Below the pieces are notes generated by a model. That model was not told the DNA's origin, made no database searches, and was given only the letters and a program-made list of their open reading frames with translations. From IMG/VR virus record IMGVR_UViG_3300028833_000073, positions 32,001 through 96,000 of that record: a DNA stretch of 64,000 nucleotides, one strand, 5' to 3'. This document shows positions 46,956-55,400 of this stretch, piece after piece (positions within the stretch are counted from its first letter, which is position 1; every line of letters begins with the position of its first letter). This stretch comes from a virus. Taxonomy: Duplodnaviria > Caudoviricetes. A program made the position numbers and the translations under genes.

Positions 46956-49900
46956 ATGTCAGCTATAGTAGATGATCTGAAAAACTATATGCTATACAAT
47001 AAAAAGATATATCTTCCAATTAATGATGATGACCGTAAAAATGGAAGTGCTATCTACTTACTTACTCCAAACTTGAATTCTTCTAAAGATATCTTAGGAG
47101 ATGTATATAATCATACTAAGTATGATGGTGCTATTAACTGGGCTAGCTACTATATGGAAAAGGATATGTCCTTCTATTTCCATACTGAATCTCATAAGAT
47201 GTCTAGACTAAGATCTAATCTTATTCTAGAGGATAGTGAATATACACTTGAGACAAATGTTAAAGGGACATTAAGTGAGTTCAAACGAGTGGAAATAAGT
47301 GAAGAGTTAATAGATCAATATAGTGGAGATTGTGATGATGTAAATGGATTGATTGGTTACTTTCCATGGACTGGTTATCTATATATGAATGAGAATGATC
47401 AGATAGTTGCTGGGTTAAATGTGAATGTAGATGATAGAGATATTCATAAGATCTTTGTGGTCGATGAAGAGAAGTATGGTTATCTATATAAGGATCTAAT
47501 TGCAGAAGCTAGAAAGATGAAAGCTAACTACTGTACCATTAGCAAGAATAATACAAGTGCTATCAAAGCACTTGAAGAATTTGGTTTTACTAAGACTGAA
47601 GACTTAGTAGACAATATAAAGATGCAGTTTAAGATTCCTATCACTGAATCTACTAGAGAGTCTGAAGTTATTGACTTCTTAGAACACTCTACTATGTTTA
47701 GACATATTAAGAACAATATCCAGTTTACTGAGCAGTATAAAGCTTTTAAGAAGCTAGTTATCTACTACTGTGAGTTCTTCAATATTAAGAAAGAGATAGG
47801 TATTCTAGGTGCTATCATTGTCTGTAGTAATAACCTAATCAATCCAGAAGAGTTGAGAGGGAATCTAAAGATTCTTAACTACATGAGTCAAGAAGAGATT
47901 GCTATTGCTTATAAGGCTGCTATGGGAGCATATGAACATAAGTTCATCGGAGAGAATATATATGATAGAATTCTATTTGATGGTTATAGACTCATACACT
48001 TCACAGATATTAATGTCATTATTAGAGATGAAGTCTTAGCTTACTATGATGAGCATAGTATTAATGGAAGATGGGATAATAACTTCCTATACATGAATGA
48101 AGTAGAAGAGATAGTGGAGAATATTAAGAGGAAGCATAGTACTAGTTCACCTAATCATATGATTCTTAATCTCTCTTATAGCTACTATAGGAAAGCTCAT
48201 AAGAAAGTACAATCTGCTATAAATAAGGGATTAACTAATAAAATTATCATTGACTATAGGGTCACTGTAAAAGAATCTGCTGAAGATGATATAGCTGCTA
48301 ATATACTCAATGAAAGTCATATCTCTTTTGGGTATGAGGATGAGAAGTTTACTAACTATGATCCTGATTGGAGATTCAAGTTATTTCCTAACCACAGAGG
48401 ACCTGGATTTGGATTTACTACTAAGACTGACTCTAAGAATCTAAGAGGAATCATTATAAGTTCTGGTACTGAGGTTAAAGGTGTTATAGGTGTAGATGAG
48501 TATAATAATATCATTGAGATGTACTGGACTGATATCAATCCTACTTTCTTACTAATGATTGCAGAACGTAAGTTCTATGCCAATAAAGTAGCTGTACCAA
48601 GGGGATATAAAGTAGCTATAGAAGCTCTTCAAGAATGTTCTAGCTGGTGTGAAGTAGAAAGAGATGAGCATGAAATTCACTTTGATTGTTACTCTCAAGA
48701 GAGGATTCCATATAAAGATATTGGGATTACTAAGAATGTAGCAAATATCTTTAATAGACTATCTTCTACTGACAAGGAGTATCTAGGTAATCAGTATCTT
48801 AACCCAGTATGTATCTCAAGTACTATCTGGAGTAAGGTATTAGAGGATACAGCTCTTGTAGATGTCTATGTACAACCTACTATGCCAAAGATCGGATGGA
48901 TTGATATTGCTGTGGTAGAATCTCAGAGAGGTAAAGGTTATGCTCTACGATTGATAAGAGAAACTCAAGAAGAGATAAAGACTAAGTTCAAAGATATAGA
49001 TGCTCTAGGATGGGTATGTCATAAAGACAATACTGCTTCATATAATCTTGCCACTAAAGCTGGTTTCTATCCATATAAAGAAGTAGAAGACCACAAGTAT
49101 CTTCTATGGACTATCCACAATACAGATATGATTCCTAATACATTCATAGAAGAAACAGAAGAGACTGAATGGACTGTAAAAGGTATAGAAGAATCATCTA
49201 CTATCAATGGTGATGGAGTAATGATGTTCATAGATGAAGATGTATCTAAGGTAATGGATGATGCTAAGTTTGGATCTAAGCTAAAGAAGATTATGTGGGA
49301 AGATAGAATTAGGAATAATAAGCAGGTACTACAGATATATGACTCTGTTAAGAAGGATACTAATGGTGGTATCAAGTACACCTATCTAGATCTTAATCTC
49401 TATAAGGGAAGGAATCTATTTGTTGACTTGTCATTCTATAACATTAGCTTCTTTAACAACTATACTAAGGCTGCTCCGAATGAAAGAGGACTAAATGAGA
49501 TGTACTTTGAGCTAGTATCTAGATTGATCAATGATAAAAGAATCAAGGATAAATATAAGAAAATCAATGTAATCATTCCTATAGAAGATTGGTGTAAAGA
49601 AGATATAAAGAAATATAAGGCTGAAGCTGTTAGAAAGGCAGACTACTGGGAGAATCTTAGTCCAATAGGTTGCTTCTTATTCTATGCAGAGAAGAATCCT
49701 TTAAGACTTCGTCAAGAGTTTAAGAATATTAACTTCATCTTCATTAGTGAGAGTGGTAGTTTCTTTAAGACTAACTTCACTGACTATGATAAGTCTAAAG
49801 ATTTTGTTAAGTTTAGAACTGCTGTACATAGCTTACTTAAGAGAGTCCATATTCCTAAGGATGAGACTTATGATAAGAAAGCTATAGTTCATAGTGTACT

Positions 49901-52900
49901 AGATAAAATGGAGTCTAATGGAGAAAACAAAGTAGTCATCAATAGCATTATAGCTAAACCTGAAGAACCTGGTAGTATTGATATACATGATCCAGCAGAT
50001 ATGAATGAAGAACAAAAGAAGAAAGCAGTTGTAACTAAGATTACTAATGCTGCTGAGAAAAGTAAGAGTCCTGAAGATGTAGTTGACACTATGTCTAAAG
50101 ACAATGAGTATGCCAAGGAATATACTGAAAAACTACTTAAGGATCTAGCTGATAATGAAACAGGGAATGTTAAGCTATCTGCTGCTAGAAGTAAGAGATT
50201 AGATAGTTTGAGTGAGAAGTTCTTATCTCAGAAGGTAGTAGATAATAAAGCTAAGTTTAATGGTACTATGGAGGAGTATATCAACTATAATTCTAATGCG
50301 GAAGAGTTACCTGAGACTGCATTACCTATAGAGAGTATCAATGAAGGATGGAAGCATCTTAAGTTTACTAACTTTGATGCTAGATATAGTGTAAGATCAG
50401 ATATCTATGCTATTCTATACTCATTTGAGAATAAGACTAGTAGGTTATCTATAAGGGATAAGATTGATATTGTAGATACTAGTACTACAGAAGACTGGAA
50501 GGAAACATGGACTGTTCCTTTTGAAGCTGATACAGGTAAGAGATTCAAGTTGAAGTTTGATGTTCCTTTGTTGAAAGATAATAGAAATATGGTATTAGGT
50601 GGTAATGACAAGACTATGAATGGTCAGCTAGTACTACTACCAATATCTAAGACAGATGAAGATACAGCACAGATAGTATCTCTTTACAATAAGATCTTTA
50701 TTAGAAGATATAGTATGGGCAACTGTAAGGCTAATAGGGAAACCGATAGGTTAAATAAAGCAATAGAGATTTTTACTAAAGAGCATCCAAATATTATGAA
50801 AATAACATATGGAGATAGCTCTAAGAGTAATGTGAAGTATGCTCTTCCTTTCGACTATACTGAGCTAGCTAGTATGTACTATAGCATAGAGCTGTATAAG
50901 AATAATAAACTAGAGCTTAAGATACTATTCAATCAAGACCAAGCAAGAAAAGAAGCAGGTCTTAAAGATGATGATACAAGAATGCCATATGGATACACTG
51001 TAAGAAATGGTAAGAAGGAAACTCTATTCTGGTATACTGATGATAGGATGGTATTTGCTAGTCAGGTTGTAGGTGTTATAAGTGGAAGATCAATTGAGTT
51101 TTATGATGTATATAAGAAGATAAAGCCAGGTGCTAAGCATTGCTATAGTAAGGCAAGCATTTTAGGTACTGAGATTCCAGTGATAATCATTATGGCTTAT
51201 TGTGAAGGATTGATAGAAGCTCTTAGAAAAGCTCATATCAACTATATTATCTCTGATAAGAGGGTCAATAGTTATAATGATACTCATGATATGATCAAAT
51301 TCAGTGATGCTTATCTATACTATGAAGATACTTATATTGGATCTATGCTTATGAATGGTATTAAAGATGTAGATACTAAAAGTCACTCTATACAAGAAGT
51401 AGATTCTAAGTCAATGTGGACTGAATTCTTAGATGAATATGGTGGTAGAGCTAAGTCCGATGGTCTTGATAACTTCTATGATCTTATGATGGATCCTATC
51501 ACTATCGAGGTATGTAATGTATATAAGCTTCCTACTGACTTCTGTGAGATGTTAGCTTATGCAAATCTCTTACTATCGACGAATGAGTATATAAAGCATA
51601 CTGATCTTAGTTCTAATAGATATAGAACCAATGAGATGATTGCTGTTCATGCTTATAAATGCTTAGCAAAAGCTTATGCTAATTATAGACTACAGCTTAA
51701 GAAGGAAAGATCTAATGTAGCTATGACTATGAAGCAGTCAGCTATCATTGACTCTATCATGGAAGAATCCATTATGTCAGATCTATCCATAATGAATCCT
51801 AACCTAGAAGCAGAAGCTATCAACTCTGTAGGATTCAAAGGACTTACTGGTATGAACAATGATAGATCTTACTCATTAGACAAGAGAACTTATGACAAGA
51901 GTATGACTAATAAGATTGCTATGTCTACTGGATTTGCTGGTAACGTAGGTGTTAATAGACAGACTACTATAGATATGCAGATATATGGTACTAGAGGATA
52001 TATAAAGAACTCGGATATGAAAGATGCATCTGTTACTAATACTCTTAGCATCACAGAAGCATTAACTCCATTTGGATCTACTAGAGATGACCCATTTAGA
52101 ACTGCTATGACTAATATCCAGACAAGTAAGCATAACATGAGAATCAAAGAGTCCATGCCTATGCTAGTGACATGTGGTGCTGATCAAGCATTACCATATC
52201 TTACAGGAGATACATTCTCGTTTAAAGCTAAGGGTAATGGTAAGGTTATTAAGAAAAATGATGATTATATGGTCGTAGAGTATGATAATAAGACTAGAGA
52301 GATGATAGATCTAAGAGAGAATGTTAAGAAGAACTCTGATGGTGGTTTCTATATCACTGTGAAGCTAGATACTAATCTTAAGAAGGGATCTAGATTCAAA
52401 GAGAAGGATATATTAGCATATGACAAGGTAGTATATAATGACTCAGTAGGTGACGGTAAGAATATAGCTTACTGTGTTGGTGCTTTAGCTAATGTAGCTT
52501 ATCTTAATACTGATGAAGGATTTGAAGATTCTGCTATTATCTCCAATAGATTAGCAGAAGCTTTATCATCTGAAGTAGTAGTAGAAGTTGCTAAGAACTT
52601 ACCTTGCAACACTAACATATTTGATATCGTTAAGAAGGGTACTAAAGTACAAGAAGGTGACACTCTACTCTTATTCCAGTCTCCATTTGAAGAAGAGGAT
52701 GCTAATAGAATCGTCAAGAATCTTGCTATGGATAAGAAAGAAGTATCTGAGCTAGGAAGAATACCATTAAGATCTAAAGTAACTGGTGTAGTACAAGATG
52801 TAAAGCTCTATAGAACAGTAGAACTATCTGAGATGTCTCCTAGTCTTAGGAAGTTGTTCAAGGAATATGAGTCTAAGATAGAAGTAATGAGAAAGGACTC

Positions 52901-53294
52901 TGAAGGAATGCTCAATAAGGTTCCTCTAGAAGCCAACTATAAACTTCCTGCTGTCTCTAAGATGAAGAATCTAGAAGGTAAGGTAAGAATTGAGTTCTAT
53001 ATAAAGTATAATGACAAGATGGGTATCGGAGATAAACTAGTATTCTACTCAGCAGTAAAAGGTGAGACTAAAAATATATTCCCCAGGGGGTTAGAACCCT
53101 ATACAGATGATCGTGGTAGTTCTGAAATTATTGATTCACTTTGTCCATTACCTAGTCTCTTACATCGTATGGTAGCATCAGTTACGATTGTTACTGGTCT
53201 CTATAAGGGTGTAGTAGAATTGACTAGATATATGAAGGAAGCCGTAGGATTAAAATATATTCCATATAATCCAAGAGAAGAAATTAAAAAATAA
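46956..53294 (+). CDS. phage multisubunit RNA polymerase beta-like subunit (probably virion RNAP) with N-terminal GNAT-like domains
   Basis: C-terminal ~950 aa has beta motifs: GNVGVNR, DDPFRTAMTNIQTSKH, GFEDSAIIS, GDKL....KG, RM; GNAT motif A IAVVESQRGKGYA and HKDNTASYNLATKAGF near 48900-49070. Confidence 0.88.
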   Translation: MSAIVDDLKNYMLYNKKIYLPINDDDRKNGSAIYLLTPNLNSSKDILGDVYNHTKYDGAINWASYYMEKDMSFYFHTESHKMSRLRSNLILEDSEYTLETNVKGTLSEFKRVEISEELIDQYSGDCDDVNGLIGYFPWTGYLYMNENDQIVAGLNVNVDDRDIHKIFVVDEEKYGYLYKDLIAEARKMKANYCTISKNNTSAIKALEEFGFTKTEDLVDNIKMQFKIPITESTRESEVIDFLEHSTMFRHIKNNIQFTEQYKAFKKLVIYYCEFFNIKKEIGILGAIIVCSNNLINPEELRGNLKILNYMSQEEIAIAYKAAMGAYEHKFIGENIYDRILFDGYRLIHFTDINVIIRDEVLAYYDEHSINGRWDNNFLYMNEVEEIVENIKRKHSTSSPNHMILNLSYSYYRKAHKKVQSAINKGLTNKIIIDYRVTVKESAEDDIAANILNESHISFGYEDEKFTNYDPDWRFKLFPNHRGPGFGFTTKTDSKNLRGIIISSGTEVKGVIGVDEYNNIIEMYWTDINPTFLLMIAERKFYANKVAVPRGYKVAIEALQECSSWCEVERDEHEIHFDCYSQERIPYKDIGITKNVANIFNRLSSTDKEYLGNQYLNPVCISSTIWSKVLEDTALVDVYVQPTMPKIGWIDIAVVESQRGKGYALRLIRETQEEIKTKFKDIDALGWVCHKDNTASYNLATKAGFYPYKEVEDHKYLLWTIHNTDMIPNTFIEETEETEWTVKGIEESSTINGDGVMMFIDEDVSKVMDDAKFGSKLKKIMWEDRIRNNKQVLQIYDSVKKDTNGGIKYTYLDLNLYKGRNLFVDLSFYNISFFNNYTKAAPNERGLNEMYFELVSRLINDKRIKDKYKKINVIIPIEDWCKEDIKKYKAEAVRKADYWENLSPIGCFLFYAEKNPLRLRQEFKNINFIFISESGSFFKTNFTDYDKSKDFVKFRTAVHSLLKRVHIPKDETYDKKAIVHSVLDKMESNGENKVVINSIIAKPEEPGSIDIHDPADMNEEQKKKAVVTKITNAAEKSKSPEDVVDTMSKDNEYAKEYTEKLLKDLADNETGNVKLSAARSKRLDSLSEKFLSQKVVDNKAKFNGTMEEYINYNSNAEELPETALPIESINEGWKHLKFTNFDARYSVRSDIYAILYSFENKTSRLSIRDKIDIVDTSTTEDWKETWTVPFEADTGKRFKLKFDVPLLKDNRNMVLGGNDKTMNGQLVLLPISKTDEDTAQIVSLYNKIFIRRYSMGNCKANRETDRLNKAIEIFTKEHPNIMKITYGDSSKSNVKYALPFDYTELASMYYSIELYKNNKLELKILFNQDQARKEAGLKDDDTRMPYGYTVRNGKKETLFWYTDDRMVFASQVVGVISGRSIEFYDVYKKIKPGAKHCYSKASILGTEIPVIIIMAYCEGLIEALRKAHINYIISDKRVNSYNDTHDMIKFSDAYLYYEDTYIGSMLMNGIKDVDTKSHSIQEVDSKSMWTEFLDEYGGRAKSDGLDNFYDLMMDPITIEVCNVYKLPTDFCEMLAYANLLLSTNEYIKHTDLSSNRYRTNEMIAVHAYKCLAKAYANYRLQLKKERSNVAMTMKQSAIIDSIMEESIMSDLSIMNPNLEAEAINSVGFKGLTGMNNDRSYSLDKRTYDKSMTNKIAMSTGFAGNVGVNRQTTIDMQIYGTRGYIKNSDMKDASVTNTLSITEALTPFGSTRDDPFRTAMTNIQTSKHNMRIKESMPMLVTCGADQALPYLTGDTFSFKAKGNGKVIKKNDDYMVVEYDNKTREMIDLRENVKKNSDGGFYITVKLDTNLKKGSRFKEKDILAYDKVVYNDSVGDGKNIAYCVGALANVAYLNTDEGFEDSAIISNRLAEALSSEVVVEVAKNLPCNTNIFDIVKKGTKVQEGDTLLLFQSPFEEEDANRIVKNLAMDKKEVSELGRIPLRSKVTGVVQDVKLYRTVELSEMSPSLRKLFKEYESKIEVMRKDSEGMLNKVPLEANYKLPAVSKMKNLEGKVRIEFYIKYNDKMGIGDKLVFYSAVKGETKNIFPRGLEPYTDDRGSSEIIDSLCPLPSLLHRMVASVTIVTGLYKGVVELTRYMKEAVGLKYIPYNPREEIKK

Positions 53295-53313
53295 ATGAGT
53301 ATAACATATTAGT

Positions 53314-53540
53314 ATGGTGGAACCAAGTGCCGTAGTGATTGTACACTTTCGCTGGGATACTTTACTTGGAAGGCCATCATACAGATGAGGGAGACAAGAG
53401 GCCGCTTTATAGAGTCGTGAAGCTTGCAAGTGGGAAGACGTGGTACCATCTTTCTTAGGCCTGTAAGGCGGTCTAGTTTCCCGTTTATATCAATTTCTTA
53501 AAACCACGTCAAAATATATCCACTACCAATGGTAGTGGAA
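53314..53540 (+). ncRNA. candidate structured ncRNA A
   Basis: Own late promoter (53303-53314) and terminal hairpin (53520-53538); long G-U-containing stems; 8-bp long-range pairing. Confidence 0.6.
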
Positions 53541-53566
53541 TTCTATTTTCTTCAATACATTATAGT

Positions 53567-53705
53567 ATGACCATGTTCTTTGCTGGTTGCATTCATTGAG
53601 GGAAGGTGCGGATCCCTTAATGGCTTTTTGCTCATTTGAAAACGCTCTTCTTTTTGTTACACGATATTTATTCCTCTCTTAACGGAGAGGGATAAATATT
53701 TTATT
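53567..53705 (+). ncRNA. candidate small ncRNA B
   Basis: TACA-N6-TA promoter at 53556-53567; stem cattgaggga/tcccttaatg; long terminator hairpin; no RBS or meaningful ORF. Confidence 0.45.
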
Positions 53706-53730
53706 TTTTATATAGATACAACATAAAAAT

Positions 53731-53910
53731 ACCAGAAGTCATGACACTCTTTGAGTGTACACGTTTGCTCATGACAGTATGGTTGGTATTTAGGTTATCC
53801 GGACCTAATACTATGCCTGTGAAAGAAAGTTTGTAGATCCTTTCTTTCCTGGAACGCTTCGTTACAACAGAGAAGACTGGAGGGCGTAACCGCCCTCCCT
53901 CTTCGCTGTC
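53731..53910 (+). ncRNA. candidate structured ncRNA C
   Basis: AACA-N6-TA promoter at 53720-53731; chain of hairpins ending in ggagggcg-taac-cgccctcc. Confidence 0.55.
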
Positions 53911-53920
53911 AAAAATGTGA

Positions 53921-53954
53921 ATATCTCTGAATTCAGAGATATATTATATATGTA
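53921..53954 (+). promoter_or_regulatory. early promoter overlapped by a 22-bp perfect palindrome
   Basis: atatctctgaattcagagatat (53921-53942) overlaps ATATATTAT (53939-53947). Confidence 0.6.
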
Positions 53955-53993
53955 GTAATAGGGTACCTTGTTTAACAACAAGGAGGAATTACC

Positions 53994-54101
53994 ATGAGAT
54001 TCTTTATATATCGTCTAGCAGAAACCACCTGCAAAAACGAATGGATCTTTGACGTAATTAATCATGTAATGTTTGATTTACTTATCACTTGTTTGCGATA
54101 A
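53994..54101 (+). CDS. small 35-aa ORF in a highly folded mRNA
   Basis: AGGAGG at 53981; MRFFIYRLAETTCKNEWIFDVINHVMFDLLITCLR. Confidence 0.55.
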   Translation: MRFFIYRLAETTCKNEWIFDVINHVMFDLLITCLR

Positions 54102-55227: not shown

Positions 55228-55304
55228 TGGCGGCCCGTATTGAATTCGAATCAATGACCTAGGCTTTAGAAGAGCCTTGCTCTATCCAACTGAGCTAACG
55301 GGCC
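55228..55304 (-). tRNA. tRNA-Arg (anticodon UCU) with encoded CCA
   Basis: ggcccgttagctcagttggatagagc-aaggct-cTTCTAA-agcct-aggtcattgattcgaattcaatacgggccgCCA folds as a cloverleaf; late-type promoter at 55315-55326. Confidence 0.93.
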
Positions 55305-55400
55305 AAGATTTTCATACTACTATGTATGTATCTATATAATTTTTAATATACAATAGATACTAAAGTAAATAATATATGTTGTAAAGGAGTGTAATTACAT

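Follow-up and report, generated by a model that had tools for sequence, protein, structure and literature searches.

A probable lineage-restricted structured small RNA, with predicted late expression, behind the RNA polymerase beta gene of an uncultured giant phage

Directly behind the RNA polymerase (RNAP) beta gene of an uncultured giant phage lies ncRNA A, a predicted plus-strand RNA of ~235 nt (53314 to ~53550) that is probably a real, lineage-restricted, structured small RNA (sRNA) with predicted late expression. Taking the evidence together, we put at about even the chances of a joint reading in which ncRNA A is a late-transcribed noncoding RNA gene with a selected two-domain fold, acts in trans as a protein-binding scaffold or decoy, and represents lineage-specific cargo at its locus. 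Positions refer to the window, the 64,000-nt stretch analysed here, which covers bases 32001-96000 of a 158,305-bp IMG/VR virus record (64% complete by estimate) from a phage genome with a G+C content of ~34%.

The gene upstream of ncRNA A is an ORF at 46956-53294 (plus strand, stop codon 53292-94) encoding a 2112-aa RNAP beta protein with a GNAT insert. Its C-terminal 1000 aa showed 29-32% identity to RNAP beta subunits of the jumbo phages Staphylococcus SA1, S6 and Madawaska, Listeria LPJP1, Bacillus subtilis vB_BsuM-Goe21 and Yersinia phiR1-37, suggesting a distant kinship with the enzymes of AR9/PBS1-like and Staphylococcus jumbo phages; the source phage itself appears to be AR9-like. Downstream of RNAP beta, a stretch of 699 nt contains no credible genes up to a 35-aa ORF at 53994, and ncRNA A occupies the first third of it. 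We refer to this ORF-poor stretch, which sits between convergent genes, as the RNA island (Table 1). Elsewhere in the window, a single ORF of 7123 aa was found on the minus strand (22012-43383), and related phages have proteins of 5200-6900 aa with lysozyme and peptidase M23 domains at the syntenic position.

Table 1 Predicted features of ncRNA A and of the neighbouring units in the RNA island.
Feature	Position	Strand	Description
Predicted late promoter AACATATTAGTA	53303-53314	+	Fits the AR9 late consensus (AACA-N6-TA); +1 at A53314
Domain 1	53314-53380	+	P1 53314-20/53374-80; P2 53323-28/53364-69; P2b 53330-31/53355-56; in MFE and centroid structures
P3 hairpin	53333-53354	+	Stem 53333-38/53349-54; invariant 10-nt loop UUGUACACUU 53339-48
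Domain 2	53389-53482	+	P4 53389-95/53476-82; P5 53399-412/53461-74, extended by 53414-16/53458-60
Domain 2 P6	53432-38/53449-55	+	Loop 53439-48
Pseudoknot arm 1 GACGUGGU	53437-53444	+	P6 loop and two closing stem bases; perfect complement of 53503-10
Tail	53483-53518	+	A/U-rich, single-stranded (unpaired in MFE); carries pseudoknot arm 2
Pseudoknot arm 2 ACCACGUC	53503-53510	+	In tail
Intrinsic terminator	53519-53552	+	9-bp hairpin 53519-39, then AUUCUAUUUUCUU
ncRNA B	53556-53710	+	ORF-free; promoter-like TACATTATAGTA, +1 near 53567; 17-bp terminator 53663-53700
ncRNA C	53720-53910	+	Third unit; promoter-like motif AACATAAAAATA

Base-by-base reading placed the helices of the original prediction where it had put them. 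In domain 1, tatggtgg (53313-20) pairs with ccatcata (53374-81) and ccaagt (53323-28) with acttgg (53364-69); in domain 2, the outer helix joins gggagac and gtttccc, and a 14-bp helix joins aggccgctttatag and ctgtaaggcggtct, with G-U pairs at 53401/72, 53406/67 and 53410/63. RNAfold recovered the same helices unprompted. The plus strand had a minimum free energy (MFE) of -80.1 kcal/mol, which none of 200 dinucleotide shuffles equalled in stability (z -4.31), and the two domains fold independently of each other (z -2.96 for domain 1 alone and -3.59 for domain 2 alone). It should be noted that 42 randomly drawn 241-nt segments of the genome averaged a z of -1.0 (sd 1.3), with one at -4.7, so that ncRNA A belongs to roughly the most stable 2-3% of this genome and is not unique. 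The reverse complement reached a z of only -0.99, an asymmetry that arises because 10 of the 52 modelled pairs are G-U, and this supports the earlier reading of the element as a structured RNA of the plus strand.

Late promoters of phage AR9, used by its non-virion RNAP, follow the consensus A(-11)ACA-N6-T-A/G(+1) on the non-template strand (PMC5449584). The promoter candidate AACATATTAGTA begins nine bases past the RNAP beta stop codon, and its match to this consensus sets the predicted +1 at the second base of the first helix; T53313 of that helix falls outside the transcript if this start is correct. Late transcription by the phage non-virion RNAP, beginning directly behind the RNAP beta stop codon, can thus be inferred from the promoter match. 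In the 100 nt preceding ORFs, the sense strand had 13 copies of the core motif AACA-N6-T[AG] where 7 would be expected, a modest enrichment that carries little information. An extended motif, [AT]ACAT-N3-AGTATG, had five copies in the genome against ~0.4 expected by a rough composition estimate, and three of the five precede ncRNA A, ncRNA B (53556) and the tRNA-Arg gene (minus strand, 55326).

At the other end, a terminator scan picked the hairpin at 53519-39 followed by AUUCUAUUUU as an intrinsic terminator; its 9 bp include five G-C pairs and lead into the U-tract ATTCTATTTT. This terminator (53519-52) is the first after the RNAP beta stop codon, none being found between 53294 and 53519, and the RNAP mRNA must therefore also end there or read through. 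ncRNA A may accordingly have a dual origin, being made as a transcript of its own and also forming the 3' end of the RNAP mRNA, with one terminator closing both. The main rival explanation, which we consider unlikely but worth serious weight, builds on the same arrangement: ncRNA A would serve the RNAP beta mRNA as a 3' UTR, acting in cis to block 3' exonucleases or to insulate the convergent junction, with no function in trans. The RNAP mRNA has to cross ncRNA A, as there is no earlier terminator, and the position of the island between convergent genes also fits a 3' UTR. What speaks for a separate transcription unit, however, is the promoter-like motif at the precise 5' boundary of the first helix, which is conserved and also precedes the tRNA gene.

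Selection on ncRNA A was assessed against a sister lineage from the window's own 90% cluster, represented by three ENA contigs from ruminant-gut metagenomes (L012, L013 and L016) that carry one variant of the whole RNA island. The RNAP protein of this lineage was 96% identical in amino acids to that of the window, and fourfold degenerate sites in this adjacent gene differed by 10.1%. ncRNA A was 90.4% identical, with the differences very unevenly distributed. The promoter AACATATTAGTA (compared with L012) and the first 15 nt of ncRNA A were invariant. The inner part of domain 1 (53329-65) differed at 13 of 37 nt (35%; P = 4e-5 for an excess over the 10.1% fourfold rate), and the P3 loop inside this divergent patch had no change in its 10 nt. 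Domain 2 differed at only 3 of 94 nt (3.2% vs 10.1% at fourfold sites; P = 0.012 for a deficit). The tail differed at 3 of 36 positions, approximately the neutral rate, with none of the changes inside pseudoknot arm 2.

When both sequences were re-aligned to a covariance model of domains 1 and 2 (R1), all 52 modelled pairs stayed standard in both and none was broken. Three pairs had changed on both sides (53330/53356, C-G to G-C; 53334/53353, A-U to G-C; 53337/53350, G-C to A-U), and three more had compatible one-sided changes (53336/51, 53338/49 and 53328/53364, the last from U-A to U-G). In a slid control with the 3' partners moved by 1-3 columns, pairing dropped to 36-54% with no compensatory pairs, and a column-shuffle control gave 60 of 500, where the floor with two sequences is 1 in 8. 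The covariation comes from two lineages and lies in one helix, with P1, P2 and P4-P6 never varying on both sides. The sister sequence alone folded in the same way (z -3.42). These comparisons point to structure-level selection on P3, whose stem would have been rebuilt by compensatory changes around a fixed loop, and are consistent with it for the remaining helices; domain 2 appears to be under sequence-level constraint, that is, purifying selection. The fold of ncRNA A as a whole looks selected. The patch 53329-53365, which stays paired despite 35% divergence, could stem from faster compensatory evolution or from recombination of a short stretch.

The conservation pattern bears on two of the alternatives. 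For the 3'-UTR explanation, the sequence conservation of domain 2 exceeds what a generic stabiliser would need, and in P3 the stem turns over around an unchanged loop. A second alternative, which we regard as very unlikely, is that ncRNA A has no function and is a decaying insertion or a chance structure in fast-evolving spacer DNA. Its confinement to one species-level clade, its absence from an 80% relative (L003) and the negative genome-wide z background would suit such an origin, but three compensatory pairs with none broken, a domain 2 that evolves threefold below the synonymous rate and the strand specificity of the fold all speak for function.

The apical loops of ncRNA A are invariant and each contains a 6-nt palindrome (UGUACA, GGUACC). 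We considered these palindromes as evidence for dimerisation and rejected them, as GGTACC is over-represented genome-wide (40 observed vs 15 expected) and TGTACA is not enriched. The GGTACC copies are often paired 9-12 nt apart (window 18667/18677, 62310/62321 and 63988/63998), resembling a hairpin stem made from a self-complementary hexamer. A kinship of the P3 loop with the ACACUUGUUUGCG small-RNA family of this genome was also dismissed, the likeness being partial.

The original prediction further held that a segment inside domain 2 pairs with one outside it, forming a pseudoknot or a switch. The perfect complementarity of gacgtggt (53437-44) and accacgtc (53503-10) was borne out; the switch reading was not, since no pairing in competition with the terminator was seen, which leaves a switch without a basis. 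The 8-bp duplex was calculated at -12.2 kcal/mol, and freeing both arms would cost 0.6 kcal/mol. Two of the eight bases of arm 1 lie in the P6 stem, and a 6-bp loop-tail helix (-7.6 kcal/mol) needs no unfolding. In shuffled tails, an 8-nt complement arose by chance in 4.1% of cases against the whole body and in 1.0% against accessible positions. The sister lineage had changes at three nearby tail positions but none in either arm, and given this invariance across two lineages nothing covaries in the long-range helix. The evidence is suggestive of an 8-bp loop-tail pseudoknot that is plausible and energetically feasible in these models, and the A/U-rich tail that follows the two seemingly autonomous domains may thus dock into the apical loop of domain 2.

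A tail of this kind also raises the question of base-pairing. Chaperone-dependent sRNAs typically have a structured 5' body, an A/U-rich single strand and an intrinsic terminator with a U-tail, and ncRNA A resembles them in its structured 5' body, its ~35-nt A/U-rich single strand and its terminator. On this analogy, ncRNA A could be a regulatory sRNA that targets host or phage mRNAs through a seed in its tail or loops, with the loop-tail pairing masking that seed, and the invariance of the tail arm would fit such a role. We judge this improbable: an antisense search of the 158-kb record gave nothing longer than one 14-nt match, which falls on the non-coding strand of a gene encoded on the minus strand and of which 0.4 would be expected by chance, and outside the arm the tail evolves at the neutral rate. 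Because there is no convincing antisense target in the phage and the constraint lies in the structured parts and not in the tail, we favour protein binding over base-pairing. ncRNA A might then act in trans as a scaffold or decoy that binds a protein of the phage or of its host, a proposal we make with low confidence.

Coding potential offers little as an explanation. The plus-strand ORFs in ncRNA A are 24 aa and 39 aa long, and the predicted transcript starts with AUG, which would open a leaderless ORF of 24 aa. We rejected a small protein gene, as this ORF has 24 aa here and 31 aa in L012, indels alter its C-terminus, and the changes in the shared part are mostly non-synonymous. The predicted tRNA precursor and ncRNA B also begin with AUG, and we therefore read the triplet as part of a promoter or initial-transcribed consensus and not as a start codon.

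No known RNA family accounts for ncRNA A either. At gathering thresholds, the only Rfam 15 match in the window was the tRNA at 55231-55304, and searches at E <= 10 with lax filters (53200-54100, and 53305-53555 alone) returned nothing credible, the best hit inside the element having 9 bits and an E of 9. No Rfam 15 model of pRNA, 6S, Y RNA/YrlA, tmRNA, ROOL, GOLLD, HEARO, self-cleaving ribozymes or riboswitches matched, and a tRNA or tRNA-like element was dismissed because ARAGORN and Rfam detected only tRNA-Arg(TCT) at 55228-55304 and the 7-bp terminal stem of domain 1 bears just one arm. The ribozyme role about which the original prediction had speculated found no support, as self-cleaving families were without a match even at E <= 10. 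A catalytic or ligand-sensing RNA, either a self-cleaving ribozyme or a riboswitch, would agree with the compact multi-helix fold and the possible pseudoknot, yet it is extremely unlikely in our view: neither ribozyme nor riboswitch families matched at this relaxed threshold, a riboswitch would have no downstream ORF to regulate before two more terminators, and a competing terminator/antiterminator pairing was looked for and not found.

Homologues of ncRNA A were sought at several depths. With the 699-nt gap as query, a distant blastn search of 50,697 phage records found none, nor did exact-pattern scans of IMG/VR and GTDB genome contigs; scans of JGI metagenomes yielded only three chance 19-mers on the wrong strand. 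The RNAP C-terminus, searched as a single protein in IMG/VR, returned nothing, and a search of 5.8 billion proteins recovered a large clade of metagenomic giant phages. Among relatives whose RNAP is 68-80% identical, the spacers 3' of the RNAP gene ranged from about 60 to 960 nt, and neither blastn nor nhmmer detected similarity between their flanks and the gap. Model R1 matched only itself in its own genome, revealing no paralogue, and had no match in the flanks of the RNAP relatives or in 16 whole related IMG/VR records, nine of which are at least 90% complete. As no homologue was found outside the species-level clade, the depth of conservation is shallow.

The 80% relative L003 clarifies what is shared at the locus. 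It keeps the stop-proximal promoter (AACATGAAAATATG), with AACA and TATG at the same position after the stop codon and a different spacer. A terminator hairpin like that of ncRNA A and the following promoter are retained too. The two-domain body is absent; between promoter and terminator lies a ~95-nt RNA with three hairpins (z -5.9). A second unit of L003 (9561-9805), behind its own AACATATAAGTA motif, would encode a ~240-nt RNA (z -2.85) with a terminator at its end; its G+C content is far above that of its surroundings, it has no Rfam match, and it is unrelated to ncRNA A or B. Since L003 retains the modules and not the body, we interpret ncRNA A as lineage-specific cargo in a variable RNA island, held between conserved promoter and terminator modules. 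That relatives bear different structured sequences at this place is also what the 3'-UTR explanation would predict if any stable fold suffices, but many relatives have gaps of just 17-120 nt after the RNAP beta gene. The idea that more distant relatives regularly carry such an island after RNAP was considered and rejected, as their gaps vary from 17 to 663 nt and have no common feature. A 907-nt gap was seen at the RNAP-beta locus of a 297-kb contig of P0122 (sample ERZ27257202). Furthermore, IS605-type TnpB/OrfB genes lie within 1-2 kb downstream of RNAP beta in two relatives (L005, 10300-11406; L011, 10147-10941), which fits an insertion hot spot at this locus.

Two further units follow ncRNA A in the island. 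ncRNA B diverged from the sister lineage by 14% overall, which is about neutral; a hairpin at ~53597-53621 stays paired through one-sided changes in an alignment read by eye, and a 10-codon leaderless ORF is retained with an altered stop codon. In ncRNA C, the final G+C-rich hairpin (53879-53898) had a G-C to A-U compensatory change and an inserted pair in the sister lineage. The approximately neutral evolution of both units fits weakly constrained or fast-turnover elements. An 8-nt palindrome in ncRNA C, GUGUACAC, resembles the loop of P3 in ncRNA A, which is invariant. Just past ncRNA C, homology to the sister lineage ends abruptly (window 53911-53993 vs L012 9955-10014, 73% differences), and the 35-aa ORF at 53994-54101, which has a strong RBS, is missing there, indicating a replacement boundary after ncRNA C.

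Similar signals were observed elsewhere in the genome. The tRNA-Arg(TCT) gene is preceded by TACATAGTAGTATG (window 55304-55326, minus strand), from which a leader of ~10 nt would result, and tatatagataca upstream of this gene is also present in the promoter region of ncRNA C. Beyond the window end, the 13-mer ACACTTGTTTGCG has five exact copies (genome 99392, 106518, 106646 and 106771 on the minus strand, 154005 on the plus strand), which sit in short hairpin-plus-terminator units behind AACA-N6-T[AG] and constitute a separate small-RNA family.

Giant phages with their own RNA polymerases make small RNAs, almost none of which has an assigned function. ncRNA A offers a clean test case: a predicted self-contained unit with a defined two-domain fold, in which one domain is constrained and the other has a fast-turnover stem around a fixed loop. 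The spot behind RNAP beta seems to be a swap site, where the structured RNA differs between close relatives and the promoter and terminator modules around it are conserved, and if such sites are general, they would describe how phages acquire and exchange noncoding genes. A bolder extension would make ncRNA A the founding member of a new functional class of phage RNAs, either an RNAP regulator or decoy or an RNA that self-assembles through its palindromic loops, carried in an exchangeable promoter-terminator cassette that is filled with unrelated RNAs; we regard this as a long shot. As an orphan with shallow conservation whose expression is only predicted, ncRNA A is of moderate interest.

Several known RNAs resemble ncRNA A in part. 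Like ROOL and GOLLD, the island comes from rumen and phage sources, lies near a tRNA gene and forms a structured ORF-free region of ~600 nt; unlike them, it has no model match, and two internal terminators together with three promoter-like motifs split it into separate units. The phi29 pRNA, which is represented in Rfam, is a two-domain phage RNA of 120-174 nt with functional apical loops, and ncRNA A likewise has two domains and invariant apical loops; however, it has no Rfam match, the source phage is unrelated to phi29-like phages, and the loop palindrome may mean nothing given the over-representation of GGTACC in the genome. The stable RNAs C and D of T4 (species 1 and 2) are structured RNAs of unknown function in a tRNA gene cluster, co-transcribed and processed with the tRNAs. 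ncRNA A is similarly a phage-encoded structured RNA grouped near a tRNA gene, whereas every unit here comes with a promoter-like motif and a terminator of its own, and the tRNA gene is found 1.7 kb away on the opposite strand. Internal promoters and a terminator shared with the mRNA are typical of 3'-UTR sRNAs of the DapZ/MicL type, which are Hfq-dependent enterobacterial antisense regulators with conserved seeds. The predicted promoter of ncRNA A is likewise at the end of a coding gene, and one terminator would serve both mRNA and sRNA, but no seed or target is evident.

The closest parallel is found in giant phages. In 201phi2-1, ONT-cappable-seq mapped sRNAs in intergenic regions, each with a start and a termination site of its own and of unknown function, and an sRNA was likewise reported for phiKZ (PMC11512511). 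ncRNA A matches these sRNAs as an ORF-free unit of <250 nt with its own predicted start and termination in a phage with multisubunit RNAPs. It differs in that it shares no sequence or structural homology with them, that theirs are Pseudomonas phiKZ-like phages with other promoters, that its expression is predicted, and that it is confined to one species-level clade. ncRNA A, which falls in no described RNA family, would thus be an unrelated addition to the intergenic sRNAs of giant phages, in an AR9-like lineage.
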